Virus record (IMG/VR): IMGVR_UViG_3300032224_001477
Span: 1 to 64,000 of that record
Reading direction: 5' to 3' (one strand)
Length of the DNA: 64,000 bases
Origin: a virus
Shown: one piece after another, positions 6,905 through 54,443 of the stretch
Numbering within the stretch: position 1 is the stretch's first letter
How the letters are laid out: each line of letters begins with the position of its first letter
Made by a program: the position numbers and the translations under genes
The notes under the pieces: generated by a model
The model's input: only the letters and a program-made list of their open reading frames with translations
What the model was told of the DNA's origin: nothing
The model's database searches: none

Positions 6905-8620
6905 TCAATAATTTAACACAGGATCTTTATTGATGTCGATCACGCGGTCCAACCGGCGAGCCTGCTCTTGCCAACCCCCACTCTTCCTTGCCATGACGGT
7001 CCCGCCGGCCATTGCTCCAACTCGAACCCGAATACACTCCAATCCCACAAAGGCTGCGTCCGCCAAATCGGGACTCTTCCCTACCCGCGACTTGTAGTCT
7101 CGCTTGGACTCTACGACCAGCTTACCTCCGGCCATCGTGGTGTATTTCCTGCTGGTTAGTTCCCTGGCCAACTCTGGAATCACGCCTTTCAACTGACCGG
7201 AACGCATAAATTCAACACCACCAAACCAAAGCTCGCTTACCTTATTCCCGTATTTGTCCTTGGCCTCCACCATCGAACTTGAGCTGATCGGCAGAGTACT
7301 GGGCTTTTCTCCAAACTTGACCCGCAAGATTCTTGGAGACCACGTCTCGGAGATAATGTCGCAAAGCGGATCCCCCGCGCCGGTGGCGTCGACCGCCAGA
7401 TATTCCGGTGGAACTCCTTGCTTTTGACATTCGGCCATAACTTGCCGAGCCACCTGAAAGTTTCTGGGCTGTGGGTCGTTTACATTTTCTCTGATGATAG
7501 TGAAATCTTTAAAGTTCACGGTAGGCCCAGCTTCTTCCGTTCGTCCGTACTCCAAGAAATACAGCACCGTTCTGTCTCCACCGTTGGTAAACGAAGGATC
7601 GAGTCCAGCAACTACCTTGGGTGGTTCAATCCACTTGGGAGCTTTATCGACCTCGAACTTGCGGAAGTCTGCCTCCGAGTAAATAGACTCCTCTGCCCCG
7701 CCTGGAGCTGGAAAGGAACGAATAAACCGCCAGAAAGAGATACTGTGCTCGCCGTCGTGGTCTTCCGCGTGCCGGAGTTGCTTAGTCGTAAGCAAAAACG
7801 GCCAGGCGTCGTCATGCTCAAGGTTGGGCGTCTTGGCTCCGTCCAAGTGAAGGCACAAGCCAAGCTTTGTATTCCACTCCTCCTTATCGACCGTGACCGA
7901 GTTCCATCCACCCACGGGGGTGGCAAACATACCAAAGGGGTCGTATTGACTGGAAAAGTTACCCAAGGCGATGCATTGAAACGTAGGGTTAGCGTTTAGA
8001 TTGGAGATAGCTTCGAAGACCGAGTTGGTCACGTCGGTGGCCTCGTCGATGATAAGGAACACCCGCTGGTTCTTAAGACCGATAAGTTTGGCCGTGGCCT
8101 CCTTCTCTTTATCAGGGCTGGAGGGTACCAGAGTTATGGACGACCTATCGCTGGACTCCCCTTCCGCCAAAATAATCTTACCCATGGAGTCTATCAATTT
8201 CCCGGGAAAGCCTGGAACCTGCAAAAATCGCTCACGGATGCCTCCCCAAAGGCGTTTGCGGGCTTCCCGGATAGATGTGCTGGTAACCAGGACAAGGGTC
8301 TCGTGGGGGGCGCAAAGCCAGTTCACCAACCCCCACATGGCAAAGGTGGCCGTCTTGCCGCTGGACTTGGGGCCGGAGATAGCAAGGTAGTCCTGCTCGC
8401 AAGCTGCCTGAATCATACGCTCCGCCCAAGGGTGCCAGCAGAACCCGGCTTTGTTTCGCGTCTTGTGATACGGCCAGAGAATCTCTACAACATTCTTGAA
8501 ATGCTGAAACTTGCCCAAACCTCCAGTTTCCGGGGTCAAACCCAGCTTAAAAGCCATGAGCTCTATTTCGAGTTTTCCGGCCCCATCTGGCCATACCTTT
8601 CCGTACAAAGTCGTTGGCAT
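6905..8620 (-). CDS. terL: Terminase large subunit
   Basis: Walker A GPKSSGKT, Walker B LIIDEAT, coupling motif LGN, RNase H-like GLDPSF..GGD and SPDLADA. Confidence 0.92.
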   Translation of the reverse strand: MPTTLYGKVWPDGAGKLEIELMAFKLGLTPETGGLGKFQHFKNVVEILWPYHKTRNKAGFCWHPWAERMIQAACEQDYLAISGPKSSGKTATFAMWGLVNWLCAPHETLVLVTSTSIREARKRLWGGIRERFLQVPGFPGKLIDSMGKIILAEGESSDRSSITLVPSSPDKEKEATAKLIGLKNQRVFLIIDEATDVTNSVFEAISNLNANPTFQCIALGNFSSQYDPFGMFATPVGGWNSVTVDKEEWNTKLGLCLHLDGAKTPNLEHDDAWPFLLTTKQLRHAEDHDGEHSISFWRFIRSFPAPGGAEESIYSEADFRKFEVDKAPKWIEPPKVVAGLDPSFTNGGDRTVLYFLEYGRTEEAGPTVNFKDFTIIRENVNDPQPRNFQVARQVMAECQKQGVPPEYLAVDATGAGDPLCDIISETWSPRILRVKFGEKPSTLPISSSSMVEAKDKYGNKVSELWFGGVEFMRSGQLKGVIPELARELTSRKYTTMAGGKLVVESKRDYKSRVGKSPDLADAAFVGLECIRVRVGAMAGGTVMARKSGGWQEQARRLDRVIDINKDPVLNY

Positions 8621-23412: not shown

Positions 23413-23467
23413 GGTAATATATCCCTTTTGGGATAGATATCTCTTTAGGGCTATATTTTTCTAATTC

Positions 23468-23745
23468 AGGGTAACCTAAGTTACCCCAAAATAGAGGTTA
23501 CCAGAGCAAGTTGCCCCAAAATAACAGCTGTACTTCAATCAGTTACGGCAAAAAGGGTAACTGGGTAACTTGTTTTTCGACTTTGGGGTTCCCAAGCCCG
23601 GCACACGCAGCGCAAATATTTCACGCCAGATTATATAGATTAATATATTATAGTTACCCTAGTTACCCTAGTTACCCTAAATATTATAACGACAAATACT
23701 TAAAATGGGTAACTTTGAAATTTCTGGGGTAACTTAGGTTACCCT
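23468..23745. repeat. Iteron cluster, putative replication origin
   Basis: Ten perfect GGGTAAC/GTTACCC heptamers in both orientations, an AT-rich core, and a bounding perfect 21-bp inverted repeat (23468-23488 / 23725-23745). Confidence 0.75.
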
Positions 23746-23943
23746 AAAACCTCTTGATTCCGTCATGGGTAGTCCTCTTGGCTAAGACCCAGATAACAGC
23801 CACCGCTGCCAGAAAAATAAGCTTACCTAAGATTTGCCGTATCATTGACCCTGCCTTGGTAAAGAGCCCACTTTGCTATCTTGGCAATCAGCCTTTTGCT
23901 GTTCACCGGCCTTTGCGTAACCGCGACCCTTGGTCTACGGGTT

Positions 23944-25756: not shown

Positions 25757-25817
25757 TTGAGGCTCCGGACCTCGTGGGGACTGCAAACCCACGGGGAACG
25801 GTTTATTAAACCGTAGG

Positions 25818-26279
25818 CTACACAGAGATAACTGGATTACTGGCAGTTACTGACACCGAATCTTGTGGAAGTTGTTGTAAAACCGCGATGTTCACTGTTT
25901 GAGTTTTCGAGCCTTCCGACAAGCCAAAAGCTGTCGTTGCTACACGATTCACCTTTTCCAATGCAGTAAAGTGTTCTTCAACTTCGCCGCGAGTAGCTGG
26001 GGCTTCTGCCTCAAGCGCGTTCATCCCGCCCTCAACCTGTTTCTTTAACCTCGACAGATAGGATTGTGCTTCCCCGACCATTTCGTTCGTTGCAGCACGA
26101 TGCGCTTCTGCCACTCGTTTCAAAGATTGTTGCTTGTATGTGGCAAGTTTGAAACGCGCGACGTGACTGCGGATCGACGCAGGATTCACGTTGAATCTAG
26201 TAGCTAAGATCTGAGGTGGAATACCTTTCGCGTATTCCGCTTCGATCGGACCCCAATCAATCACTGAACGCTGTCTCAT
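25818..26279 (-). CDS. terS: Putative terminase small subunit
   Basis: N-terminal DWGPIEAEYAKG...LATRFNVNPASIRSH HTH typical of TerS; helical middle and C-terminal TVNIAVL strand. Confidence 0.6.
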   Translation of the reverse strand: MRQRSVIDWGPIEAEYAKGIPPQILATRFNVNPASIRSHVARFKLATYKQQSLKRVAEAHRAATNEMVGEAQSYLSRLKKQVEGGMNALEAEAPATRGEVEEHFTALEKVNRVATTAFGLSEGSKTQTVNIAVLQQLPQDSVSVTASNPVISV

Positions 26280-26381
26280 ACTGTTGCAACGATTGTACCA
26301 GACGTTGCAACTCTATGCAAGCTACTGACAAACAACAGTCATTTTAACCACGATCGATAACCCATAACCAAGGAGACAACC

Positions 26382-26594
26382 ATGAACGACACCATGACCA
26401 CAATGCTCTGCCCTTACGCCGTAGGACAGATCATCGATAACGACAACGGCACCCAAGAGATCGTCAGGCACATCGCTAACATCGATGGTGACTTCTACGT
26501 GCAGACGAGAGTGCTGACCAACCTTGGTGGCTACTACAAGGTGCAGCCCAACGGGGCTTTGACCAACGGACTTCGGAGCACGTACCTCGGATGA
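26382..26594 (+). CDS. Hypothetical early protein
   Basis: SD AAGGAG; palindrome upstream at 26323-26344. Confidence 0.6.
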   Translation: MNDTMTTMLCPYAVGQIIDNDNGTQEIVRHIANIDGDFYVQTRVLTNLGGYYKVQPNGALTNGLRSTYLG

Positions 26595-26806
26595 ACCGGT
26601 ACGCAGTCGTTTATAACGGCCACGTGCAACGGGAGTTCAAGCGTCGTGAAGATGCTTGGGACTACCTGGTGCAACGTGGCTGGCGTTGGTCCGATGAAGC
26701 TCACGTGAGGCCCATCAGGAATGAATGGTTTACCGGCTTACAAGCTCGCGGCCTTGCCGTTGAGTGCAACGCCGGCTTCCTGATCCGTGGCGTTGACGAA
26801 GCTTAA
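26591..26806 (+). CDS. Hypothetical early protein
   Basis: ATGA overlap. Confidence 0.55.
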   Translation: MNRYAVVYNGHVQREFKRREDAWDYLVQRGWRWSDEAHVRPIRNEWFTGLQARGLAVECNAGFLIRGVDEA

Positions 26807-26812
26807 AACCAC

Positions 26813-27014
26813 AATCTTTGGTGAAAGGTGAACAGATCTAGGTATCGGCGTGGTAGCGGAGGGTTTGAAAAAACAACCCAGGTAGATCCTAGAGACACGC
26901 AACAGAACCACCTTCAGGAGACCACCATCCGAAGGCTTCTGTCTGAGCCGCAAGGCGTAGACGAGTTGGAGTAGCGACCAACAGCCTAGATCTGTTCACC
27001 TTTCACCTAAGATT
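26813..27014 (+). ncRNA. Candidate structured ncRNA closed by a 30-bp inverted repeat
   Basis: Arms 26813-26842 and 26985-27014 are 29/30 complementary. The interior folds into about four hairpins, one with a GCAA tetraloop. Intergenic. Confidence 0.55.
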
Positions 27015-27028
27015 ACTAATTGAATTTC

Positions 27029-27078
27029 ATGCAACCGCGGTACTTTGCCTCCGCGTTGCATCCTGACGGTAAGGCAAA
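27029..27078 (+). promoter_or_regulatory. H-type pseudoknot just upstream of an RBS
   Basis: 11-bp stem 27029-27061; loop TTTGCCT (27044-27050) pairs with AGGCAAA (27072-27078). Confidence 0.5.
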
Positions 27079-27093
27079 ACAAGAGGTACATAT

Positions 27094-27258
27094 ATGCGTA
27101 ACATGATCCCAATCGACTATGTCGAAGTGGAAGAATACACCAACCAATCAACCCTTGATGCCGTGAGCAGCGAGTACGCTGCCATGCAACACCCCATGCT
27201 CGAGATGGACGAAGCGTCCATGCGGGCTGAGTGCGTCCGGAGGTTCATCAATGATTAA
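27094..27258 (+). CDS. Small acidic early protein (54 aa)
   Basis: MRNMIPIDYVEVEEYTNQ..., SD GAGG at 27083. Confidence 0.5.
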   Translation: MRNMIPIDYVEVEEYTNQSTLDAVSSEYAAMQHPMLEMDEASMRAECVRRFIND

Positions 27259-41939: not shown

Positions 41940-44900
41940 CTACAGCTTTACACCTTGCCGGATTAGCTCCGGTGTCAGCTGTGCCTTTGCAGTAGCGGTT
42001 GCTTTTTGCCCCAGCTTGGTCAAATAATCGTCTAACTGTTCGGTGCTCATGCGCTTCGCCATTGAGAAGAACGAAGGACTACGAACAACCTGGGCGATAA
42101 CCTTTCCTCGTAGCTCTCTAAATCTATAGAACTGCTCGTCATTAAGCGGGTAGTTTTGAACTGTCTGTCCTCTTCGAGCGTCTGGGATAAAGGCTTTCTT
42201 GGCTGACAACAGTTTGAAGAGAGGGTCTGCTTCAGAAGTATTGATAAACCTCTGTAAGAACAGCAACCTCTCCGGCCCTGCGGGAGCATTAACCACCTCA
42301 CCCAATACATTGAGTTGCGGCTGCCCAGTCATGCTCTTCAAGATCGGCACTTTGTTAAACAACCATTTACCCACAAAGCTTGTCTGTTGTTGCGGAATGG
42401 GTTCAAAGACTTGATCCGCTTGCTTAATAATGTTGGGCACTGCGTTGCCGACCGCACCCGAAAAGAAGTTCTGTGCGGCCGATACGTCCTGACCTTCAGA
42501 AGTTCCGTCCAGCATCTTAAACAAGTTGGACAACCCCTGCAGGAATGATTGATTGAAGGGCACCTGAATGGTAGCGAGCGCGGCCGATGTAAGCTTTTCA
42601 CCCATGTCTTTTTCACGACCCCTCGGATAGTTTGAGGTATCAAACCACGTTCCAACAATCGCCAATGGGATTGCTAGCGGGGTGGACAGATAGCTAACTT
42701 TAACGCTATTGCCACCAAAGGAGAATGAGTACGGTACGTAACCAGCTTCGCGTGCCTGCTTTCTAGCTGCAGGATCTGAAGGTCCACCACCAGTGATATT
42801 AAAGCCGTCATCCTGTCCGTCGTCGTCCTTATCTTTTAGCATGTTAGACAAGCCAGCCAACACAAGCATGCCGGCTGTACCAAGAGTTGCTTGAATAGCG
42901 TAAAGGCTGCCCTGCTCGATCAGCTTGATTTGTTCCAACTGTTCTACCGACTTAGCCAGCCCACTTGTCTTTTTTGTGCCGGCCTTACCCCAAGCCAGGA
43001 AGGCTCGGTACGCACCGATCGGAGTATAGTTGATGCTTTCGTTGGTAACATTTGAAACGATCTTGGTGAAAGGAACAAATAGCGGACCGAGAATTGGATG
43101 CTGTTGAGAGAATGTTCCAATACATTTGGCTATGTTGCCAAGCACTCCATACGGCGCGTTATTATATGTGGCGTACAAAGATAGATCTTCGGCCCGGCGC
43201 ATAATCGAAGCTCTCTCAGGATCTTTGAGTATTGCTTGATCCCTGAGTTCATATACTCGCTTCGTAAACTCTGCAGTGCCTGGCTTCAAACCCTCATCGT
43301 TGATGGCCACATTTGTAGCGTAAGCAACGAAATTGTCTGTTTGATTAAGAAGCCGAGCCGCCTCTTCTTCAGGCGACAACTTGGTAAGCCCATTCTCAAC
43401 ATTCTCGATTGCCTGGATCTGGGCTTGGATAGCTGCAAAACCTTCCAGTGCAGAACGGCCGAACAATGCGTCCGAAGCTGCCATAATTCGGAAAATATAC
43501 TTACCCTTGGACAGCACCTTTTTCATGAGGGTGTCTGTATCCATTGATTCAAGAGCATTGATACTAGCTTCATCCACGTACTTACCATTTGTTCTTAGGT
43601 TGATGTCTCCGTGAAGTAGGATTCCTTTAGCTTCTGCAAAAGCAATGGTGTGCATGGATGCCAAGAATGTTTTGTATCCTAGGGCCATGTACTTTGCGGC
43701 CAGCAGAGGGTTGCCTCTGGCTGTAGCTGCAGCCAACGAGTAAGTTGCAATATCCGCGATTGACTTAAAGGCCGTCGAGACAAAGTTCATCCAGAAAGTT
43801 GCTGGGCCTGAAAGCATGGACATGTACCAGTAAGCGGAGATCTGAGGGAGGGCATCAGACTTTGTCGCTCCGTGAAGAACTCTGAGCGCCTCTTGGAACT
43901 TTCTATCCTTCTGGAAGCCATCAGGTAATTCAGCTGCCTCTTCCATCATGCGCCTTAGGGTTTCGGCCGTGTTCACATCAAAAGATGGGAACTTACCAAG
44001 ACTGTCGATGCTTGAAAGAACCACCTCCTCGTTGATTGCACCTAAGGCAGCCAACTCAAGAATCTTCCTTGCGTCTCCCGCAATCGCATTCTCCAGGGTG
44101 TTGCCCGTCCGAGAGATTGGCGGCTTAACCACTTCGTGCATTTCGCTAAGCAATTGCTCAATGCGTTCAGACTTTAGCTCGGGGATGGTCATGCCCGCAC
44201 GGTTCACAATCTTTCTTCCAAGCGTACGACCACGAAGACTTAAAGCTTTTCCAAGCTGGGTTTGCATGTTTGCTTTCACCATGTCCGCCAACTCTTGAAA
44301 CCTAAGCGGAGCATTTTCGTAGTCGGGCAACAGCCGGGACAGCACTTTGACTAGGTCTTCCCCACTGAACTGCTCGTAGTGATTCCTGATGATAGTAACG
44401 ATGTCGTCCGCGTTGTTTTCTCGCAGTGCTTGAGAGTAAAGCCTGTTGATCTGTTCGATAAGGCTTTGTACGCCCTTGTCCTTAAGGGTGAGTCCTAGTG
44501 CAACATCCTGAAGCTCCCTGACTTCTTTACGAATTTCTTCGTTTTGGGTGGCTACCCTATCTTTTACACCTCTGCGGGTCTCAGCAAGACGCGTAATGTA
44601 TTCGTTAACCATGCCAGCCGGCGTGTACATCAAGAGTTCTTTTAGAAGTTTGTACCCAATCGATATTGTCTGCCCCATGTTGCGACCGAGATTGGCTATA
44701 TAGGTAAGAAGATCTGATGCTCTTTTGACCTGACCCCTCTCCCTGAAACGACGAATTGCGTAACTGGCGAGCAGAACAATCTGTCGCTGGTTTAATTTGT
44801 AGGGTTGACCCCCAATATCGATATCCTGAGTTTTGTCGGCATCGGGTCCAACCTGCGTTAACCACATTGAAATCTTTTCGGGACTTAACTCATCGAGAAC

Positions 44901-47900
44901 GCCTTCAACTGCCTCGATTGCCCCTTCATCAGCAAGATATGAGAGGTCTGCTTTTTGCGATGCTTTTTCGTAGGTCGGTACACCGTCCTGGTAGATCTCG
45001 GCCGCTCGGGCTGCCGCGGACAAAGGTTGAGCCCCGATCGGTCGGGCTTGATCAATAGCTTCTCCCAAAGAGTTTAACCCAGGAGCTTCAGAGCTTGGCA
45101 CGTTATACGACGGGGGCGCTACGTAATCGGAGTAGAACCGATCGTATACCGTGTTGATCTTGTAATAGGTTTCGTAAAGACTTCTCGCCCTTGGGTCGGA
45201 AGAGTTCTTAAGAGTGCTGAAAAGATTAAATATAGAATCAAGAACCGTACGCAACCACCCAAGGAACGACCTGCGTCGCGCCCTGGAAAAGGTGTCGAGG
45301 TTTCTTACCTGTTGCCTGGACTGTCCCTGGATCAGGTTGGATACACGATCTTGAACCTGAAGGCTGCGGACAAGCTCAAGACTCTCGGTAAACACCTTGG
45401 CGCCCTGACTCTTATCAAGCTCAAGAAGAACTCGGAAGAACTCAGCAACCAGCACTTCATCGCTTTCTTTGGTCTCGGGATAAAGTTCGCCGAGCGCTTG
45501 TTCAACTGAAACCGCTTTCTTGCCCGGCAACTTGACCATGAGCCCGTTGTCTTCTGAGCGAAGGAAGTCCGCTGCCTCACGAACTCTGGTGTTGTAGTAA
45601 GACACCCAAGATACCCCACCATTGGGGAAACGCGCTCGGTATTCTTTTCGGAGCTGTTCGAAGTAAGAAAGATGCGCCACTTCGTGGGTAATAAGTTGGT
45701 CCATCAAAGCCGCGGTAAGGTTGTTGTATGTGTTCCTTGCATCGCCGTCCAAGAATTTAATATCTTTCTGCTGGAAAAGTTTATCTGCCAGAAGTTCTGG
45801 GTTAACAAAGATGGTTGAGTTGATTGGGTCATTTGCGTTTTCGGAACCGCGAACCGTGAACACAGGGTATTTCTCTTTGGTGTTTGAGACGAAGTTGACG
45901 TTCTTTAGACCTCTGCGACGAGCAATAAAGCGAAGGTATTCCATCGCCTTCTCTTGTCTTGGATCCTCGAGGTTAAGAAGGTTTGAATCAAAGCTAACCC
46001 CGGCGTCAGCAAAGCCTGACTCGGTAGCATATTTAGCAGCTCCGGCCACATCGGCCTGAACCTTCTTCATCCTGGAGCGGTCCGCTTGCTTGATGTAAGG
46101 ATCGTTGATCTTGCGCATTTCACTGAGCGCAGCGGCCGAGTTAAACGGAGCACGACTTTCAAAGGCCGGCAGGAGAATGTTAAACAAGAGATCCTTGACC
46201 CGAGTCCTATCGTTTTGTGGGCTGATCAGTTCTTCCGGGGCCAGCGTGCGGTCGAATTTACCAACTGGGTCCAGCAGTTGCTCGATCATCTGCTCGCGGG
46301 TTACGCTATTGAGCCTGTAAATTCTATGAAGAAGATTCGTAATCCGCATCGCAGCGTCGTTCAACGACTCAAGAGGACTGTTTTCCAGAATCGCCAACAT
46401 AGCTTTAGAGAGTGAACCCTTACGCGCTACGTCCGCTACAATTCTATTTAGCTCTTTCCTAGGGTCAGTGCCTTTTGCAATATCCGCACCCGCGGCCTTA
46501 ACCGCAGCCCGGATCTCACTGTCCTTCTCGAGCTCTGTTTGAGCCTCTTGATCGTACAATTCAAGGACGTCCTTAACTTTCTGAGCATCCGAGAACTCCT
46601 GCATATTATTACGTTCAAGTTCCTTAAGAATGCCCTCGTACCTGTCTTGCGCGATTTGACGAAGCACAGGTTCTTGAATGAAAGAGGAAGGAATGCCAGA
46701 TAGTGACCCGAATACTTTGTTAAGCAACGCGCCACTGAGAAAGCCTTTGCCTTTTCCTTTGTCACCGACTTGCGACCCACTTTTGATTTTGATGGTGGGA
46801 AACAGAATATCCAGCTGGGCGTTGCTCTTGCCGTTGTACATGGAAGGACGGTATCCCGAAGTGAATCCAAAGCCTTCACGCATAATGATGTCATGAACAG
46901 CTCTGGGGATGAAAGGCAGGGTGTTGCGGTATGCGGCCATCTTATTGATGAACGCTTCGAACTTTGTCCTGCGTTTGTTTTTGGTTGGTAGTGTTTCATA
47001 TTTGTCTAGCTCCGTAAAATATCCTTCGTTATCGAGGCCAATCTGCGCGTCGTAATCACTGCCCATATCTTCCGGTGTGAGACTAGCTTCAAAGATATCT
47101 TCAACTGGTCTTCCCTCTTTCACCTCCTCTGTTCTGCCTTCAAGTGAAACAAAAGACTTCTCTCTCAACTTCATCGAATCTGCAATCAGACTAACCCGCC
47201 TTGCTAAACCAAGAACTCCGGCATAGCCCTCAACCGACAAGGATGAAACAAACCCGTATAAAGTATTGGTTGGGCGACTTTCGTCTAGGTAGGTACCGCC
47301 AAAAGGCTCTTGAGTCATGCTGTCGTACTGCTTGAAGATCTTTCCAAACAACGCACTTAGTCGTCTTCTATTGTACTCAGCATCCCTATTCCCCCTGGCT
47401 TCCTCGACCTTCAACTCCTCATTGTTTGTCTCGAGCACCTCTGGAGCTCTCTTGCTGCGTATAAGCGCCTCGATAAACACTCTTCGCAGCATCTCACTGT
47501 CCTTTGAATTCTCAGGAGTAGTGACGCTGAGGTTATCTACAAGGCTTCTAACCTCGGTTTCAGACAAGCCACTTTGCTTGGCTCGGGTTAGCAAATGCTC
47601 CAAGGGACGGCCGGAGCGCCCTGCTGCGTTGCGGTTGACCCCTACTTCGTAAGACCAACCCTTTGAAAGATCTTGTTCGTCAATCGGCGTATACACCATT
47701 CCGCTCTTAAAGACATTTACTGCATCTTGAATGATGCGTGGGAGCAGGGCTAGTTCTTCAGAGTCAAACGCTCCCTCGTCAATGGCTCTCTGCAGACGCG
47801 CATCAACATCTTCGAGGAACAGAGAGTTCATGTCTCTCCTGGTGTTCGCAGCCATTGATTCTACCAGACTCTTTTCAATGCTTTCGCGAGTCTTGCCGAA

Positions 47901-50900
47901 TCCATCCAGGTACGATTGAGCTATCGTCTGAAGCAATAGCGTGCGGTTCTTGATGTCGTCATCCGAGAAAGAAACATCATCAAGTGAAAGCGTGTCGACA
48001 TCCGCCCCGCGATCCTCTCTCAACCAGGTGTTGATCTTGTTACCAAGGGCGGCTGCTTGCTCCCTAGTAAGCGCGGAAATCTCTTCAACGGTCATCCTTT
48101 TTGCACCATAGGGCAGCTGACCAAGCCATTCGTTTGTCCTGTGGTTGTATACGCCTGAAACAAAAACGCCGTCCGCGGTCTTATCAAAACTTACGACATT
48201 ACGAAGAACCCTGATGACACTGTCCGACTCCTGCGTCTCTTTCGTGAAGTCCACCACAAAGCCTTCTTTAGCTCCTACGAACTGATTGAGAAGATTCTGA
48301 TGGGCGAGAACCATATCTTGTATGGTTACGTTTTCGGGTAGGTAAATGTACTGACCGAGCTTATCCATATCCCGCGCCACAACCGCCGCGGATTCCAGTC
48401 GTTTGTCTTGAGCTATGATTTTAGATTCTTCGCGTCCTCGGAGTGGGGCTTTATCTCCTAGATACTCATTCGTCATCGGATCTGTAATGCCTGTGACAAT
48501 GGCAAAACCATCCCTTGAGGTGATGTCTGAAGGGTTACCGAATCTTGAAATGTAGGAGATTCTAGGAAGTACCAGCATTCGAACGTACTTTCCTTCCGGA
48601 TCAGCCGCCTTGATGATAGCCGTCTTCTCTGGAGAAATTAACATGTGCAACCTGGCTGACTTAACGGCATTTGCACCTTCAGCTTGTTCCAGGGTCTGGC
48701 TGTATTCATAGCCACCCATCCCACGACTGACCTCACCTGCCCCCTTTTGGCTTTCGAGTTCCGGTATTTGTTCATCCTCAAGGCCCTGCCCATAAGACTT
48801 CTCACCCATAGCCAGTTGCTTATTGGCCGAAGGTTTATCGGTATAGGAAGGTACGGTGTCCCCGACTGTTGATACATTGCCACCGGCTATATTGGCGGCC
48901 GAACCCATGTCATCCGACTTCTGGGTGTAAAAAGCCTTCTGTGCAAAATTGGTTTCTTCCTTAGCTCCGAACTCAACATCGCTGTTAAATTCGTTTTCTT
49001 GAGTCGTGAAGAATGGGTGAAGGAGTCTGTAGAAAAGAGTTGTGAAGTCCCTAGGCAAACCGGCTACGCCATGGGGCTCAGATGTAAATATGCCAAACTT
49101 TGTGGTTATTTCCGTAATAATTAAGGCGCTACCGCTGGTCTCCACCCCGGTAAAGAACCCGGGGTAAGCTCTGACAAATTTGACGGTTTCCGGGTCTGTA
49201 ATTACAACCGGGCTGCCGTGCGAAGGCTTGTTTAATTCGGGCTTTTCCTTCCGCCTCGGCATGCTGGCCCCGAGCTTTTGCGCTACATCAAATGCAAACT
49301 TACTACGCCAGTCTTTACCAGGGAATTTGCCAAGCAGATTGCTTGCTTCCGCCCAACTCAAGTCATTTAGATCCTCAGGGGTTAGCTTTCTCTGTGCTTC
49401 CATCTCGGGACCCTCGTAAACGTTGATCGAGGTTGTCGGCAGCATGACGTCTGTGTCGGTAACGACGTTCGTGCCCTTGGCGTTCGCAATGAATTTGTTC
49501 CTAAACGAAAACGGAAGCGCCCGCATGACGTTCCTGGCTTTGTCCATCAGATAAAGCATGTTCTCTTTGAACACAACGCCCGGGAACTCTTGAATCTCGA
49601 TCGCGTTTGCTGGGGTAAAGATAGCTGCGGCAGGAGCTTCTTCACCGACTACCTCTCCATTCTTAAACAACTGAACATTGTCGGGTCTTAAGGGCGCTCC
49701 ACCTGCCCTACTGTCTTCGGCCTCGTAAACTTCGAATGTAGTTTGAACTGATTGCGGACTATAGACCTGGCTTCTTAGTTTTGGATCTTGATCAATAAAC
49801 TTTAAAGACCAACCCTCTTGACTCTCCCATGCGGCACGACCCCCGGGGGTCCGCAAGTCGGGAGTAACAACAGAAGTCACTACGTATTTCGTGGGGTCGT
49901 TCTCAAAACTGATCACATCTCCCACTCTTGCAAAAGCTCTGCGTGTAGTGCTCTTTCTCCTGCCGTCCTGAATTAATTGTAGGGTAGTTGTTCCATTCGG
50001 GTATCTGTCTTGCAGATCCTGTCGCAATCCTTCTTTCGGCACAGGGTACCGCATTGGTACTTTTGCAGGTTGGGCCTCATTGGTTGGTCTGGGTGAGTCG
50101 GTAAAAGGCAGGAAGATATCTAAGTTCGCAAGATTTCCGGCTCGTGGGTCTCTTGCGATAGCTTTTGCCAGCATCTGCATGTACGTGCCAGGGAAGTTCA
50201 AGGACCATGGGTTTTGCTCCCGCACAGCCAGATACATCTTTGCTAGAATATTCTGGTCTTCTGCGTAGCCCTTAACAATTTCAAGCGCTGACTTTACAAG
50301 GTATTGAGCATCCCTGGTTATCTTAGCTCCCGGCTTTACGGAATTCACCGCATAGATGGCTTCCTGCAGGGTCGTAATCTGCTCAGGAGTCAGAGGCCGA
50401 AGAGCTGGGGTAGCGCTTCTACCCATCCTGCGCTCCTCGTTATCCAGAATTACTTCTTGTGCGTACTTGGCTATGTCGAGAGGAGGCGGTGGAACAAATC
50501 TCTTTTTCGGGTCGTTAATCGCTCTTGGATCAACTGAATAGATTTGGTTCATGTAGCTGGACCGGGCCTGACTCTTCTTGGCTTCAGTCATCTCCTCTGT
50601 GGGAGCCATACCGACCCAGTCTGAATCCTGCCGACCCAACCCGTTCATCTCATTCATGTAATCCGTGCGTACGCCGTATACTCGTAGCGAACCATCAAGA
50701 GGATTAACCAGGGAGTTAAGAACCGCGTTTAGCTCCTGCACAGAAGCCTTAACCCATTCCGGTGAGTTCTTAATAACAATACCCATGTCGGGATTCTTCG
50801 ATATCGCTTCCGAAATTCTAGATACCCCAGACTCAAGCCAAACAATACGTTGAGCCCTTATCTTATTTTGCATTTCGCCGTACTGAAGGGTGACCTCGCG

Positions 50901-53900
50901 TATGCGATCCGAGAGCTTCTTTCGCTCAGCTGTGTTTATAGCGCCTTTCTTTTTCGGAGCATTCCGCCCACCGTCTTTAGAGAGGTCGCCAAACTCCTGT
51001 GCTTCCTTAGCCTGAAGTTGTTCCAACTCGCTAAACAGCGCAGTTAATTTGTTATCGAGATCGGTAATAGATGGCTCGGGCGGGACTTGAAGATCAAGAA
51101 AGCCACGCACCGGTTTGGCTTCAACTGCTTTTTTAGCACCACGTTCTTTTTTGGTCGCAGGCGTAGTTGCCGTCGAAGGCATAGGCAGGATCGGTTGCCC
51201 CCACCAGGTCTCACCCTGGGCACCGATGGGTTTTGCCGCATCGGATCTGGTAAACAAGTCGTCAGGATCAACGGTTCCTATATTTCCGTTTTGCTTGGCT
51301 TCAGCGACCACCTCTGTTTCACGTTCGTACGTACCCCAGAAAGATTTTCTGTAAGCCGCATCGGGTTGATAAAATGGCTCAAGTTCGACAAGATACTGTT
51401 CTCCTTTGGACCGGTTAAGTTCAATTACCTGGGGGTTGGTTTGAGCAATTTGTGAAGCTTCATCCACGCCCACTGATTCAACTCCATCGACTTCGTCACC
51501 AATCACTCGGATGTTCTTAACCTTTACAGTATAGGTGTTGTCTTTTTTGGAATAAGCAAAAGCCGTAAATGGAAATGGGGTTAGCTTTGTAATGCCCCCG
51601 GGAGCGTCTTTTGGGTTATATATCTTGCGACCCTCAACATCTTTTTGTGTGCCAACTATTTTTCTGCGTCTTTCAATTTCTTCAGATGTTTTAGCGGAAA
51701 GCAGTTCGCGAGCTTGCCGCCTGCTTAGAATAATCCCCTCAAGGATATTCTCCCCTTGGTTGCGTATACGCGCACTTAAGCTCAGGTTCTTATCTGGATC
51801 GTTCGGGTCTAGCGCTTGAGCTTCACCCAGCACACGATCCATATTTGGAATAGACGCGCTTCTTGTAGACCTTTTGCCCCCTGAAGGTATCTTTTGCATT
51901 TCTTTTTGCACGAAAGCTTGCAGGTCCGTTCCCTCCAAACCATTTTGCTGACCTGTCTTTTCGGCCCGGGCTCGCACTTCCTCAAGTTGAGCTGCTGTTC
52001 CTCTGGACGTTGTACCGCGTCTTTTCTTAGGCGCTGTGGCAAAGGGGAAAATATTTGCTGCTGTGCTACTTAGTAGTTTTACGTTTGCCGGAATCTTTTG
52101 ACCCGCAAATATTTCTCTTTCTCTTGTTTCCGAAAAAGTACTTACCCGCCCCGCCCCTTGATGAGCACCAAACATAAGCCAGTATTCTTTTCCGGGGTTT
52201 GCCTTTGCGTACTGTAAGAATCTTTCAAGCTGAACTCGAGCTTCTCTTGGGTTAAACGACTCGTTCGCACCTTGGCGATTGTTTTCGGCCGAGGGCCCTT
52301 TAAATCCTTTTTCGTATACCGGCAATCCATACGTTCGCCCATTAGGTCCCGTCTTGCCTACTTCAGCACCAAGCTCCTTTGCAATTTTACCATAAACACC
52401 GTTGTGGTTCCCGTTAACGTCTGTTCCAAAAACCAGAACACGGTCATTGGCTCGGATATCGACGGTCGGGTCAAACTGACTCTTAAGAGCCTCCGCGCTC
52501 GCCGCACGAGTCGTATACCTCAAAGGGTTGATTGAGTTCTCAATTATTTTTTCTGGGGATGCTGATACCGCAAAGTCTGTGCCCGAAGCCTTTGACCTAC
52601 CCTCGATAATGTAATCCAGGTACTCAGCTCTTGCTTCCGGATCATTAGGCACCGACCCAAGCTCTTGAAATAACTCCCTGGCTATATTCTGCGAATCCTT
52701 AATGAGAGCTTCTTTATCGGTACCCCTAGTAAATCTCGCCGTATTCTGAGGTTCGATGATAGTAAACTTTGAAGCGTTCGGGTTATCCTTGAGGAATCGA
52801 GCAACCCTTGGGATAAGAACATTTGCGCTCCTACCGGCTATAAATGTTTGCCTCGCGTCGGTGGCGATGTTTCGTTTCCTAGACTGCCCAATATCGTTTT
52901 TGTAAGTGTCCGGGTTCCCAATAACCACGACGAAATCTGAATTGTTAATGTTATATGAGTCCGCCTCGTCTGGATTTTCGGTCGTATCGAAGCTTGAGAG
53001 CAGGTCTGATTCCGACTCGGCAAGCGAAGGGTTCTTAGAACGAACTTTCAAACCACCACGATTTACCCCGTGTTGATCTGCCAGGCTTTCAGCTACACCA
53101 GCAAAAGGTCCAAAACCGCTACCGAGGTAGGTAAAGGCGCCCTTTTTCTTGGGTTTTTCTGTGTCTTGTCCTGCAGGGGCGGGGTTTTGAGATCCGTCGA
53201 CCTCATCCAAAGCAGCGTTCTCAACTATGTCAGGCCCGTTCAGAACATCGTTTACCTCAGTGGAATTAGTCGGTCGAAGCTCAGGAGTTTGGTTATTAGC
53301 AACTTTTTTAGCTTCTTTAGTCAACGCGCTAGACGCCTCCCTTGGGAGCTCAAGCTGGGCTTTTTGTTTTGCGGCTTGGATTGTAGGTGCGCTGGTCTGA
53401 CTCGGGAATAAAGTATTGGTCTTAGTCTTCTCTTCAACAGCTTGTTCTGTCTGAGGAATAAGAGTACGGGCTCCACCAAGGCCAAGCTCAACCATACCAG
53501 GAACCATTTCACCAATGAACTCAGCCCAGGCGTCGGCCGGATCGGACTTTTCCCCAATCGCTGCACTACCCGCAACTTCACCAGCCGCACCCAACATACC
53601 TTGTAGAGCCGCATCTCCAATACCTCGAGCGGCCAAACCCTTTAAACCTTTAGCGGTCTTGAAAAGCATTTCCGAAGGAAGTGCCACAGAAGCCGCATCA
53701 AATGCCCCGACTGTAACTCCTCTAGCAAGCGCCCGGTTCTTCATCTCTTGAACTTTTGCTGGGTCGCGAAGAACAGCAGCTACGGCTTCGGTGTTCTGAA
53801 GATCCCCGACTTGCGCACGCAAGTCTTCCAAGATCTTTGATCCACCCTCAACGAAGGCTGATCCAGCACCAACACCTGCCATAGTAGAGAGCAGGACGGC

Positions 53901-54443
53901 CTCTTTTCCTCCACCCGCAGCTCTAGCGCCGATGCTACCCGCAGCACCCAGGGCCATGCCTGGTACGCTTGAACCTAAACCTTGAGCCGCAATAAGAGCC
54001 GCAGCTTCTGGGTTGGTAAAAATATTAAGAATTGGCGCAACCCAACCACTACCTCCGGCTTTTTGATATTTAAGCATCGAACGAGCTTTTGGCTGGGCTT
54101 GAAGCTCTCTATCTTGTTGAGCAAGCTCGGCGGCAGCTTCTTCAGGAGTATCTAGACCGTTGACCGCGCGAAGAGCTTTGGCCGCCTGCATTGAGGAAGC
54201 CATGCCGTTCACGAACTCGTCCTTCATTCTTTGGAAAGTCGACCGCGGATCGGGCTGGAGACTCAATGCTGCCTTGGCCGCTCGCACTTCCTCTTGAGCT
54301 TGCACATACCTAGACATGTCGAGCTGCCCTGGAGCAAAAGCCTCATCTTGTACGGACTGCTCGTAAAGATTGAGAACCTGCTCCTGCTCGTCAGGGCCCA
54401 TTCCCTTGAACTTATCGTTCTGTAGGATTTCTTGAAGTTGCAT
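41940..54443 (-). CDS. Giant (4167 aa) polyvalent internal virion protein
   Basis: Gly/Ala-rich N-terminal segments, HEVAH zincin motif, ASCH-like and macro-like inserts, and a C-terminus resembling large ejection proteins (PF.KI..N, GY.PYS). Confidence 0.75.
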   Translation of the reverse strand: MQLQEILQNDKFKGMGPDEQEQVLNLYEQSVQDEAFAPGQLDMSRYVQAQEEVRAAKAALSLQPDPRSTFQRMKDEFVNGMASSMQAAKALRAVNGLDTPEEAAAELAQQDRELQAQPKARSMLKYQKAGGSGWVAPILNIFTNPEAAALIAAQGLGSSVPGMALGAAGSIGARAAGGGKEAVLLSTMAGVGAGSAFVEGGSKILEDLRAQVGDLQNTEAVAAVLRDPAKVQEMKNRALARGVTVGAFDAASVALPSEMLFKTAKGLKGLAARGIGDAALQGMLGAAGEVAGSAAIGEKSDPADAWAEFIGEMVPGMVELGLGGARTLIPQTEQAVEEKTKTNTLFPSQTSAPTIQAAKQKAQLELPREASSALTKEAKKVANNQTPELRPTNSTEVNDVLNGPDIVENAALDEVDGSQNPAPAGQDTEKPKKKGAFTYLGSGFGPFAGVAESLADQHGVNRGGLKVRSKNPSLAESESDLLSSFDTTENPDEADSYNINNSDFVVVIGNPDTYKNDIGQSRKRNIATDARQTFIAGRSANVLIPRVARFLKDNPNASKFTIIEPQNTARFTRGTDKEALIKDSQNIARELFQELGSVPNDPEARAEYLDYIIEGRSKASGTDFAVSASPEKIIENSINPLRYTTRAASAEALKSQFDPTVDIRANDRVLVFGTDVNGNHNGVYGKIAKELGAEVGKTGPNGRTYGLPVYEKGFKGPSAENNRQGANESFNPREARVQLERFLQYAKANPGKEYWLMFGAHQGAGRVSTFSETREREIFAGQKIPANVKLLSSTAANIFPFATAPKKRRGTTSRGTAAQLEEVRARAEKTGQQNGLEGTDLQAFVQKEMQKIPSGGKRSTRSASIPNMDRVLGEAQALDPNDPDKNLSLSARIRNQGENILEGIILSRRQARELLSAKTSEEIERRRKIVGTQKDVEGRKIYNPKDAPGGITKLTPFPFTAFAYSKKDNTYTVKVKNIRVIGDEVDGVESVGVDEASQIAQTNPQVIELNRSKGEQYLVELEPFYQPDAAYRKSFWGTYERETEVVAEAKQNGNIGTVDPDDLFTRSDAAKPIGAQGETWWGQPILPMPSTATTPATKKERGAKKAVEAKPVRGFLDLQVPPEPSITDLDNKLTALFSELEQLQAKEAQEFGDLSKDGGRNAPKKKGAINTAERKKLSDRIREVTLQYGEMQNKIRAQRIVWLESGVSRISEAISKNPDMGIVIKNSPEWVKASVQELNAVLNSLVNPLDGSLRVYGVRTDYMNEMNGLGRQDSDWVGMAPTEEMTEAKKSQARSSYMNQIYSVDPRAINDPKKRFVPPPPLDIAKYAQEVILDNEERRMGRSATPALRPLTPEQITTLQEAIYAVNSVKPGAKITRDAQYLVKSALEIVKGYAEDQNILAKMYLAVREQNPWSLNFPGTYMQMLAKAIARDPRAGNLANLDIFLPFTDSPRPTNEAQPAKVPMRYPVPKEGLRQDLQDRYPNGTTTLQLIQDGRRKSTTRRAFARVGDVISFENDPTKYVVTSVVTPDLRTPGGRAAWESQEGWSLKFIDQDPKLRSQVYSPQSVQTTFEVYEAEDSRAGGAPLRPDNVQLFKNGEVVGEEAPAAAIFTPANAIEIQEFPGVVFKENMLYLMDKARNVMRALPFSFRNKFIANAKGTNVVTDTDVMLPTTSINVYEGPEMEAQRKLTPEDLNDLSWAEASNLLGKFPGKDWRSKFAFDVAQKLGASMPRRKEKPELNKPSHGSPVVITDPETVKFVRAYPGFFTGVETSGSALIITEITTKFGIFTSEPHGVAGLPRDFTTLFYRLLHPFFTTQENEFNSDVEFGAKEETNFAQKAFYTQKSDDMGSAANIAGGNVSTVGDTVPSYTDKPSANKQLAMGEKSYGQGLEDEQIPELESQKGAGEVSRGMGGYEYSQTLEQAEGANAVKSARLHMLISPEKTAIIKAADPEGKYVRMLVLPRISYISRFGNPSDITSRDGFAIVTGITDPMTNEYLGDKAPLRGREESKIIAQDKRLESAAVVARDMDKLGQYIYLPENVTIQDMVLAHQNLLNQFVGAKEGFVVDFTKETQESDSVIRVLRNVVSFDKTADGVFVSGVYNHRTNEWLGQLPYGAKRMTVEEISALTREQAAALGNKINTWLREDRGADVDTLSLDDVSFSDDDIKNRTLLLQTIAQSYLDGFGKTRESIEKSLVESMAANTRRDMNSLFLEDVDARLQRAIDEGAFDSEELALLPRIIQDAVNVFKSGMVYTPIDEQDLSKGWSYEVGVNRNAAGRSGRPLEHLLTRAKQSGLSETEVRSLVDNLSVTTPENSKDSEMLRRVFIEALIRSKRAPEVLETNNEELKVEEARGNRDAEYNRRRLSALFGKIFKQYDSMTQEPFGGTYLDESRPTNTLYGFVSSLSVEGYAGVLGLARRVSLIADSMKLREKSFVSLEGRTEEVKEGRPVEDIFEASLTPEDMGSDYDAQIGLDNEGYFTELDKYETLPTKNKRRTKFEAFINKMAAYRNTLPFIPRAVHDIIMREGFGFTSGYRPSMYNGKSNAQLDILFPTIKIKSGSQVGDKGKGKGFLSGALLNKVFGSLSGIPSSFIQEPVLRQIAQDRYEGILKELERNNMQEFSDAQKVKDVLELYDQEAQTELEKDSEIRAAVKAAGADIAKGTDPRKELNRIVADVARKGSLSKAMLAILENSPLESLNDAAMRITNLLHRIYRLNSVTREQMIEQLLDPVGKFDRTLAPEELISPQNDRTRVKDLLFNILLPAFESRAPFNSAAALSEMRKINDPYIKQADRSRMKKVQADVAGAAKYATESGFADAGVSFDSNLLNLEDPRQEKAMEYLRFIARRRGLKNVNFVSNTKEKYPVFTVRGSENANDPINSTIFVNPELLADKLFQQKDIKFLDGDARNTYNNLTAALMDQLITHEVAHLSYFEQLRKEYRARFPNGGVSWVSYYNTRVREAADFLRSEDNGLMVKLPGKKAVSVEQALGELYPETKESDEVLVAEFFRVLLELDKSQGAKVFTESLELVRSLQVQDRVSNLIQGQSRQQVRNLDTFSRARRRSFLGWLRTVLDSIFNLFSTLKNSSDPRARSLYETYYKINTVYDRFYSDYVAPPSYNVPSSEAPGLNSLGEAIDQARPIGAQPLSAAARAAEIYQDGVPTYEKASQKADLSYLADEGAIEAVEGVLDELSPEKISMWLTQVGPDADKTQDIDIGGQPYKLNQRQIVLLASYAIRRFRERGQVKRASDLLTYIANLGRNMGQTISIGYKLLKELLMYTPAGMVNEYITRLAETRRGVKDRVATQNEEIRKEVRELQDVALGLTLKDKGVQSLIEQINRLYSQALRENNADDIVTIIRNHYEQFSGEDLVKVLSRLLPDYENAPLRFQELADMVKANMQTQLGKALSLRGRTLGRKIVNRAGMTIPELKSERIEQLLSEMHEVVKPPISRTGNTLENAIAGDARKILELAALGAINEEVVLSSIDSLGKFPSFDVNTAETLRRMMEEAAELPDGFQKDRKFQEALRVLHGATKSDALPQISAYWYMSMLSGPATFWMNFVSTAFKSIADIATYSLAAATARGNPLLAAKYMALGYKTFLASMHTIAFAEAKGILLHGDINLRTNGKYVDEASINALESMDTDTLMKKVLSKGKYIFRIMAASDALFGRSALEGFAAIQAQIQAIENVENGLTKLSPEEEAARLLNQTDNFVAYATNVAINDEGLKPGTAEFTKRVYELRDQAILKDPERASIMRRAEDLSLYATYNNAPYGVLGNIAKCIGTFSQQHPILGPLFVPFTKIVSNVTNESINYTPIGAYRAFLAWGKAGTKKTSGLAKSVEQLEQIKLIEQGSLYAIQATLGTAGMLVLAGLSNMLKDKDDDGQDDGFNITGGGPSDPAARKQAREAGYVPYSFSFGGNSVKVSYLSTPLAIPLAIVGTWFDTSNYPRGREKDMGEKLTSAALATIQVPFNQSFLQGLSNLFKMLDGTSEGQDVSAAQNFFSGAVGNAVPNIIKQADQVFEPIPQQQTSFVGKWLFNKVPILKSMTGQPQLNVLGEVVNAPAGPERLLFLQRFINTSEADPLFKLLSAKKAFIPDARRGQTVQNYPLNDEQFYRFRELRGKVIAQVVRSPSFFSMAKRMSTEQLDDYLTKLGQKATATAKAQLTPELIRQGVKL

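Follow-up and report, generated by a model that had tools for sequence, protein, structure and literature searches.

A conserved and structured non-coding element of uncultured freshwater phages as a candidate for a new phage RNA

Element A is a 202-nt region of non-coding DNA that separates two small genes in the genome of an uncultured freshwater phage. It makes a good candidate for a new phage RNA. Its interior is nearly frozen while one loop drifts, and its closing helix keeps pairing despite changes in sequence, a pattern that, in the DNA copies compared, points to a working RNA. The reading favoured here, tentatively and with a probability of about 0.4, is that element A is a functional RNA cassette, transcribed together with the + strand genes around it, whose long helix would be cut by the RNase III of the host. 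To our knowledge, few structured RNAs of phages have been described beyond tRNAs and a handful of small RNAs, and non-coding cassettes that come and go from one phage to its near-identical relative are as a rule written off as junk or as MITEs. If both the excision by RNase III and a role in trans hold true, such cassettes would offer phages a modular way to carry accessory RNAs, and the family of element A, which is tiny in current data, could be modelled and then searched for in viromes.

Location and predicted fold of element A

The window, that is, the whole 64,000-nt stretch of DNA that was analysed, corresponds to positions 1 to 64,000 of a virus record that is 76,208 bp long and has direct terminal repeats. 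The genome encodes a helicase, an exonuclease, a DNA polymerase, rIIA/rIIB, and a tyrosine integrase, and a 571-aa ORF (6905-8620) matches terminase large subunits, those of cultured phages at only 22-32% identity. Element A is present in a single copy in this 76-kb genome and is surrounded by small ORFs, all of which lie on the + strand except one (25818-26279, - strand). It begins immediately behind a 71-aa ORF, and 80 nt separate its end from the next gene, a 54-aa ORF (27094-27258). The coordinates of the element, its parts, and the related features are collected in Table 1.

Table 1. Features of element A, its upstream gene, and the sister element B. Positions refer to the window unless a contig is named.
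Feature	Position	Strand	Description
Upstream 71-aa ORF	26591..26806	+	stop codon 6 nt before element A
Left arm of closing helix	26813..26842	+	starts with AATC; core GGTGAAC also in element B
Interior of element A, 142 nt	26843..26984	+	predicted five-way junction with four hairpins, from folding and comparison of copies
Hairpin 1	26848..26900	+	GCGUG/CACGC stem around GGGUUUG-A6-CAACCC
Hairpin 2	26903..26941	+	three stacked stems; 8-nt apical loop at 26920-26927 (GACCACCA)
Hairpin 3	26941..26962	+	GNRA-type tetraloop GCAA at 26950-26953
Hairpin 4	26965..26982	+	5-bp stem GUUGG/CCAAC; 8-nt loop AGUAGCGA
Right arm of closing helix	26985..27014	+	core GTTCACCTTTCA also in element B
Empty site of element B	25770..25806	+	37-nt unit, hairpin plus AACGGTTTAT
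Element B in L028	L028:6270-6466		24-nt arms, 149-nt interior
Element B in L011 (the contig of L007; also in L006)	L011:4369-4535		25-nt arms, 117-nt interior

A first-pass annotation, made from the letters of the window, had described a 30-bp stem sealing a domain of four hairpins, and both parts of this description were reproduced: the two arms, 142 nt apart, pair at 29 of 30 positions (97% complementary), and all four interior hairpins were recovered in the fold of the + strand RNA. The inner 23-mer of the arms, which contain tandem units GGTGAAA-GGTGAAC, occurs at two sites only in the 64 kb, with 0 expected from shuffles. For the + strand of the entire element, the predicted fold reaches -94 kcal/mol (z = -8.6), a value that was equalled by none of 200 shuffled sequences, and the - strand folds nearly as well (z = -7.7). 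The helices of the five-way junction follow one another in the same order as in class II tRNA.

Several lines of evidence favour the + strand, which is also the strand of the neighbouring genes, as the one that carries the structure. In all seven copies available, four of element A and three of the sister element B described below, the RNA fold of the + strand is the more stable one by 4-14.5 kcal/mol. Where a closing helix has changed on one side only, the + strand RNA can still form G.U pairs, two G.U pairs are conserved in element B, and GNRA tetraloops (GCAA) are found on the + strand only. The four DNA copies of element A have identical folds, and their interior pairs are invariant (39 of 39), leaving no covariation to score. 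Variation in pairing is found in the closing helix, where the outer 10 nt of the right arm vary among the copies. Pairing is kept there by G.U pairs and, in L005 and L030, by the loss of 1 nt from the right arm, which makes up for a U-to-A substitution in the outer left arm, so that the outer helix persists. Every copy is predicted to form the closing helix on the + strand, with 30 bp in element A and 24-25 bp in element B. The earlier proposal of a structured non-coding RNA element is therefore sustained, as the element is real, strongly conserved, folded in a strand-specific manner, and matched by no catalogued family.

The absence of a credible ORF, also asserted earlier, holds as well. A 48-aa frame with a GTG start begins in the stem, and neither this frame nor the antisense frames have a match in Pfam or PHROGs. 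Since the 48-aa frame shows almost no synonymous change, the constraint on element A is not that of protein coding. A protein-coding role of the frame was rejected because it has no family match and its sole database relatives are element A itself called as an ORF. These relatives, P0008 and P0009 (one protein cluster, from a JGI contig of 2412 nt and an ENA contig of 1963 nt, respectively), were found with the translated frame and are annotated as 'hypothetical proteins' of 61 and 63 aa, with Ser in place of the upstream stop. Judged from the translations only, their C-terminal 47 residues correspond to the interior of element A and the part derived from the left arm is strongly diverged, with at least 6 positions changed, which suggests that element A may occur with other arms and that the interior is the constrained core.

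Constraint, distribution, and the sister element B

A search with the 109-aa gene nearby and a scan of metagenomes for the arm pattern retrieved the syntenic locus from six further contigs. Element A is found at the same site in four of the seven genomes, namely the window, L028, L005 (the contig of L020), and L030, and is missing from L004, L006, and L007, the flanks of which are otherwise near-identical. Among the four phage lineages that carry it, represented by four DNA copies, the interior is 96-98% identical. Its divergence amounts to 0.021-0.035 per site versus 0.12-0.20 at the four-fold sites of the flanking genes. In the three comparisons with the window, 5/142, 3/142, and 3/142 interior positions differ as opposed to 23/184, 30/178, and 31/154 four-fold sites (Fisher p = 5e-3, 9e-6, and 6e-7), such that the interior changes about 5-10 times more slowly than nearby silent sites. 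In L030, for example, the interior is 98% identical and both flanks are 82-92% identical.

The few differences are distributed in a characteristic manner. There are four variable interior columns, all unpaired, and three of them (26923, 26924, and 26926) fall in the apical loop of hairpin 2, which reads GACCACCA, GACCCCCA, GACAUCAA, and GACCACAA in the four copies and evolves at a roughly neutral rate; hairpin 1 has a single variable loop base (A/G at 26872). When the apical loop is left out, the contrast with the four-fold sites becomes stronger, and the other 134 interior positions, loops and linkers included, change at a rate about 10 times below the neutral one. Because this loop drifts neutrally and the rest is nearly frozen, old vertical descent under purifying selection fits the data better than recent spread. 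It should be noted that the downstream intergenic stretch and g54 likewise show little divergence in two of the three comparisons, and thus part of the interior conservation could reflect a recombination block.

The genomes without element A differ in how the site looks. The comparison of L006 with L005 reveals a clean indel, the ends of which are the ends of the inverted repeat. In the short-form genomes L004 and L007, the upstream ORF is joined to a CATCGCA-like vestige of the outer right arm; given this remnant, they look like deletions from an element-bearing ancestor at a microhomology of 4-5 nt. On comparison of the aligned loci, all three genomes appear to have lost their copy by small deletions. 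Since it is absent from three of the seven relatives, element A is not essential. Imperfect repeats flank it in L005 (GCAGTTTAAC/GCAGTTAC) and in the window (AAGCTTA..C/AAGATTAC), where a weaker repeat of the downstream hairpin region possibly flanks it too (p about 0.04).

Outside these relatives, arm and interior words revealed no further true copies in IMG/VR and the JGI metagenomes, and interior words of 15 and 18 nt gave chance-level matches only in IMG/VR. Cultured phages yielded no match to element A at E <= 10, and when 185,579 bacterial species genomes were scanned twice for the arm pattern, the outcome was either nothing or chance matches. Two sets of hits to interior words were discarded, of which the one in L088 is the 3' end of a tRNA-Leu in antisense and the one in L114/L117 is a tRNA-cluster spacer with an insignificant fold (z = -1.3).

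A search of the relatives for long inverted repeats uncovered a second element of this kind, element B, about 1 kb upstream of element A. Its site lies in a gap between convergent genes, in a 3' untranslated position with terminator-like hairpins on either side. The window, L004, L005, and L030 have this site empty. In L028, L006, and L007/L011, an element B of 165-197 nt follows directly after the position equivalent to 25806 and is succeeded by a diverged second 37-nt unit, the two units differing at about 13% of positions. All four combinations of occupied and empty A and B sites exist among the seven genomes, and the cassettes have been found only in this small clade of uncultured freshwater phages. 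The part common to A and B is restricted to the arms (AATC...GGTGAAC / GTTCACCYTTCAT), including a shared right core of 13 nt (GTTCACCTTTCAT). The full-length alignment of the two is better than 999 of 1000 shuffles, and homology of the interiors taken by themselves is not significant (p about 0.3-0.4). Element B itself comes in two variants, which have the arms and the 3' half in common and the 5' hairpins swapped; a hairpin common to both keeps its pairing through sequence changes (CAGCC/GGCUG versus CAGCUC/GAGUUG).

Proposed release by RNase III and competing explanations

Elements A and B each lie directly behind a + strand ORF, with which they would be co-transcribed, and the + strand RNA of either is predicted to form a closing helix of 24-30 bp with a common core sequence around a compact multi-hairpin domain. 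A near-perfect helix of 30 bp inside a transcript is a textbook substrate of RNase III, and the predicted fold of element A provides more than the dsRNA helix of at least about 20 bp expected of an RNase III site. To judge from known substrates of the enzyme, host RNase III would cut both strands of the helix, thereby separating the upstream and downstream cistrons and freeing the interior of roughly 150-190 nt as a discrete stable RNA. As no RNase III gene was found in the phage genome, any such processing would need the host enzyme. The succession of transcription, cleavage, and action in trans is proposed on the strength of the conserved + strand fold. Given that nearly every interior base is under selection, and not the paired ones only, the freed RNA most likely has a sequence-specific job, such as protein binding or action in trans. 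The cassettes are dispensable modules, and their loss would come about by recombination at direct repeats, short or long, that flank them.

RNase III stalks are found in the R sites of T7 early mRNAs, in lambda sib, and in the stems flanking 16S and 23S rRNAs, and what these are generally known to have in common with element A is a long regular dsRNA helix between cistrons of a polycistronic transcript. The likeness is closest for the stems of 16S and 23S rRNA, which enclose and release a structured RNA; the R sites of phages are simple hairpins that enclose nothing, unlike the predicted element A, and there is no sequence similarity. It is by analogy with the rRNA stems, the T7 R sites, and the Correia elements that the long helix of element A is regarded as an RNase III substrate. 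Repeats of the latter type form an RNA hairpin that is cleaved by RNase III (PMC2649163, PMC10969869).

Cleavage might also be all that matters. The hairpin could function in cis as a processing or stability signal that sets the expression of the upstream 71-aa gene relative to that of the downstream genes, with the excised RNA having no role of its own. The position of element A, 6 nt past one stop codon and 80 nt ahead of the next start, its long helix with 29 of 30 positions paired, its dispensability in relatives, and the 3' untranslated setting of element B between terminator-like hairpins are all in line with such a signal. A mere hairpin, however, has no need for 134 interior positions held about 10 times below the neutral rate, and known RNase III sites consist of a simple hairpin some 50-60 nt long, which also counts against a function confined to cis. 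We therefore consider this explanation unlikely, and cis-only and DNA-level roles are both held to be less likely than that of a released RNA.

Mobility offers a different account, according to which A and B are MITE-like, non-autonomous mobile DNA with terminal inverted repeats of 24-30 bp, of no benefit to the phages, and the RNA fold is a by-product. MITEs are known in phages, where they are rare (PMC11602168). Element A has the terminal inverted repeats of at least 10-15 bp and the lack of coding capacity by which MITEs are recognised, and the sharing by A and B of nothing but their arms, the terminal AATC included, is what is expected of elements with terminal inverted repeats. Both sites are polymorphic among relatives in all combinations, the indel boundaries match the ends of the inverted repeat, and direct repeats flank element B (37 nt) and, weakly, element A. 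The first-pass annotation had named multiple dispersed copies with target duplications as the sign of a MITE, and this picture emerged in part: a second locus with homologous arms and direct-repeat flanks does exist, but a genome carries no more than 1-2 copies, confined to the same two sites, and none were found in the 185,579 bacterial species genomes or elsewhere in IMG/VR or the JGI metagenomes. Furthermore, the repeats in the flanks are long and diverged (element B) or imperfect (element A) rather than short exact duplications, the right-arm remnant in the short-form relatives indicates deletion and not an unoccupied target, and no transposase with a Y1_Tnp or rve domain, the two families searched for, is encoded by the phage. 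Conservation of the interior while one loop drifts neutrally is at odds with recent spread, and the changes that have occurred favour pairing on the + strand. A purely MITE-like nature is considered unlikely. As to origin, a MITE-like or recombination-cassette source may still be entertained in view of the arms in common, the indel polymorphism, and the repeats in the flanks, and such an origin is compatible with an RNA function.

Correia elements (CREE/NEMIS) of Neisseria and ERIC elements of enterobacteria illustrate how far the likeness to MITEs goes. Like element A, they are intergenic, 100-200 nt in length, bounded by inverted repeats of about 26-30 bp, and variably present between close relatives; they are also co-transcribed with their neighbours, as element A presumably is. 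In contrast, Correia and ERIC elements are chromosomal MITEs that occur in high copy number, with short target duplications and cores under loose constraint, whereas the family of element A is characterized by 1-2 copies, two fixed sites, long or imperfect flank repeats, and a constrained, complex interior. Another precedent is provided by the PeSL cassettes of T4-type phages, small modules of variable regions that near-identical phages gain or lose by recombination at repeated stem-loops (PMC2839356, PMC4122927). The position of element B between two copies of a 37-nt hairpin unit recalls this arrangement. PeSLs differ in that they are flanking promoter or terminator repeats and their cargo consists of ORFs, whereas here the cargo is a conserved non-coding fold with an inverted repeat of its own.

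An extension of the released-RNA reading would give the shared arms a function in themselves, as a common excision signal for modular small RNAs of phages (A, B-long, and B-short) that are cut by RNase III and act in trans on the host. Different structured RNAs would be plugged in behind accessory genes; the tRNA-shaped element A, for instance, could sequester a host RNA-binding or tRNA-targeting factor. This more ambitious proposal is improbable as it stands, and, if true, it would establish exchangeable non-coding 'RNA morons' as a new class in phages.

A signal at the level of DNA has also been considered, either as a strand-specific fold of ssDNA for priming or single-strand initiation or as a cruciform or protein site made of GGTGAA heptads. 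The tandem GGTGAAA-GGTGAAC units in the arms fit this idea, DNA hairpins tolerate G.T pairs as well, and the scans encountered iteron-like GGTGAA/TTCACC heptad clusters in unrelated viral or metagenome contigs (L018:3050-3250, L025:5140-5340, and L027:1340-1600). These contigs were, however, selected by the search pattern itself, and the clusters are probably coincidental, although the word does turn up repeatedly. A site for protein binding would not place every one of the 142 interior bases under constraint, and GNRA tetraloops and a five-way junction are hallmarks of RNA. In addition, a separate candidate origin, rich in iterons and bounded by inverted repeats, is already present at 23465-23748. 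A DNA-level role for element A is considered very improbable. The repeat at 23465-23748 is the second long inverted repeat of the window, made up of GGGTAAC/GTTACCC words, with 27-nt arms 230 nt apart. L028, L009, and L011 have it in conserved form, and it resembles an iteron-type origin, not a relative of element A.

Known RNA families and other features of the locus

In agreement with the earlier statement that element A could not be assigned to a known family, cmscan against Rfam produced no match at E <= 10 other than two hits outside the element that amount to noise; the covariance models of Y RNA, YrlA, tRNA, and tmRNA are among those without a match to element A at this threshold. ARAGORN detected no tRNA or tmRNA in element A, and element B has no meaningful match in Rfam. 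Element A resembles Y RNA and YrlA in that its 5' and 3' ends pair to give a long terminal helix around a multi-helix domain. It differs from these and from tRNA-shaped RNAs in the absence of a match in Rfam or by ARAGORN, of a canonical T-loop, and of a gene for Ro/TROVE (PF05731), which was not found in the genome, and assignment to Y RNA or YrlA was rejected on these grounds. Integron attC sites do not appear to fit either, for the AAC/GTT triplets of element A lie in the middle of the helix and not at its ends.

The first-pass annotation had gone further and likened the element to retron ncRNAs, with a possible role as a decoy or antitoxin-like small RNA against host defence. A likeness exists in general shape only: element A is non-coding, about 200 nt long, compactly structured, and placed among small accessory genes, and its arms resemble the a1/a2 inverted repeat of retron msr-msd RNAs, a feature that is unspecific when taken alone. 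The analogy failed at the partner gene, since reverse transcriptase (PF00078) is absent from the whole 76-kb genome at E <= 1, a search to which control genomes respond. Neither a long retron-style msd hairpin nor an effector gene accompanies element A, and a retron ncRNA was rejected for these reasons. For a decoy or an antitoxin-like RNA, nothing was found in support: the genome has no Ro/TROVE partner, there is no ToxI-type repeat array, and no neighbouring gene is toxin-like by Pfam or PHROGs. The apical loop (26920-26927) has no co-varying complement in the phage, where chance 8-9-mers only were obtained, none of them co-varying in L028. Of all the explanations considered, this group, comprising an anti-defence decoy, an antitoxin-like small RNA, and a retron-like ncRNA, is the least credible, its probability being close to negligible.

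Some further features of the genome deserve mention. A 4167-aa ORF on the - strand (41940-54443) has one weak match in PHROGs (phrog_2072, residues 663-756). The notion of an N4-like phage, with this ORF as its virion RNA polymerase, was abandoned because the ORF has no polymerase PHROG match and a tyrosine integrase is present, and any reading in terms of hairpin promoters was dropped along with it. In the 71-aa ORF upstream of element A, an N-terminal part of about 37 aa is conserved and is followed by three unrelated C-terminal tails in the relatives (the short form, b, and c). Tail c lies between GAYGAAGCT repeats (26693 and 26795) and may represent read-through into duplicated non-coding DNA.

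Downstream, 14 nt past element A, another hairpin (TGCAACCGCGG / CCGCGTTGCA, in the region 27029-27077) is nearly invariant in all seven relatives, with or without element A. The loop of this hairpin, TTTGCCT (27044-27050), has its complement in AGGCAAA (27071-27077), which immediately precedes the ribosome-binding site of the 54-aa gene, and a pseudoknot is therefore possible at 27029-27077. Finally, two GTTGCAAC palindromes, 21 nt apart, are located at 26283-26311 in the divergent intergenic region between a 153-aa gene on the - strand and the + strand genes; as their half-site resembles the arms of the hairpin at 27030-27060, they may constitute an operator.
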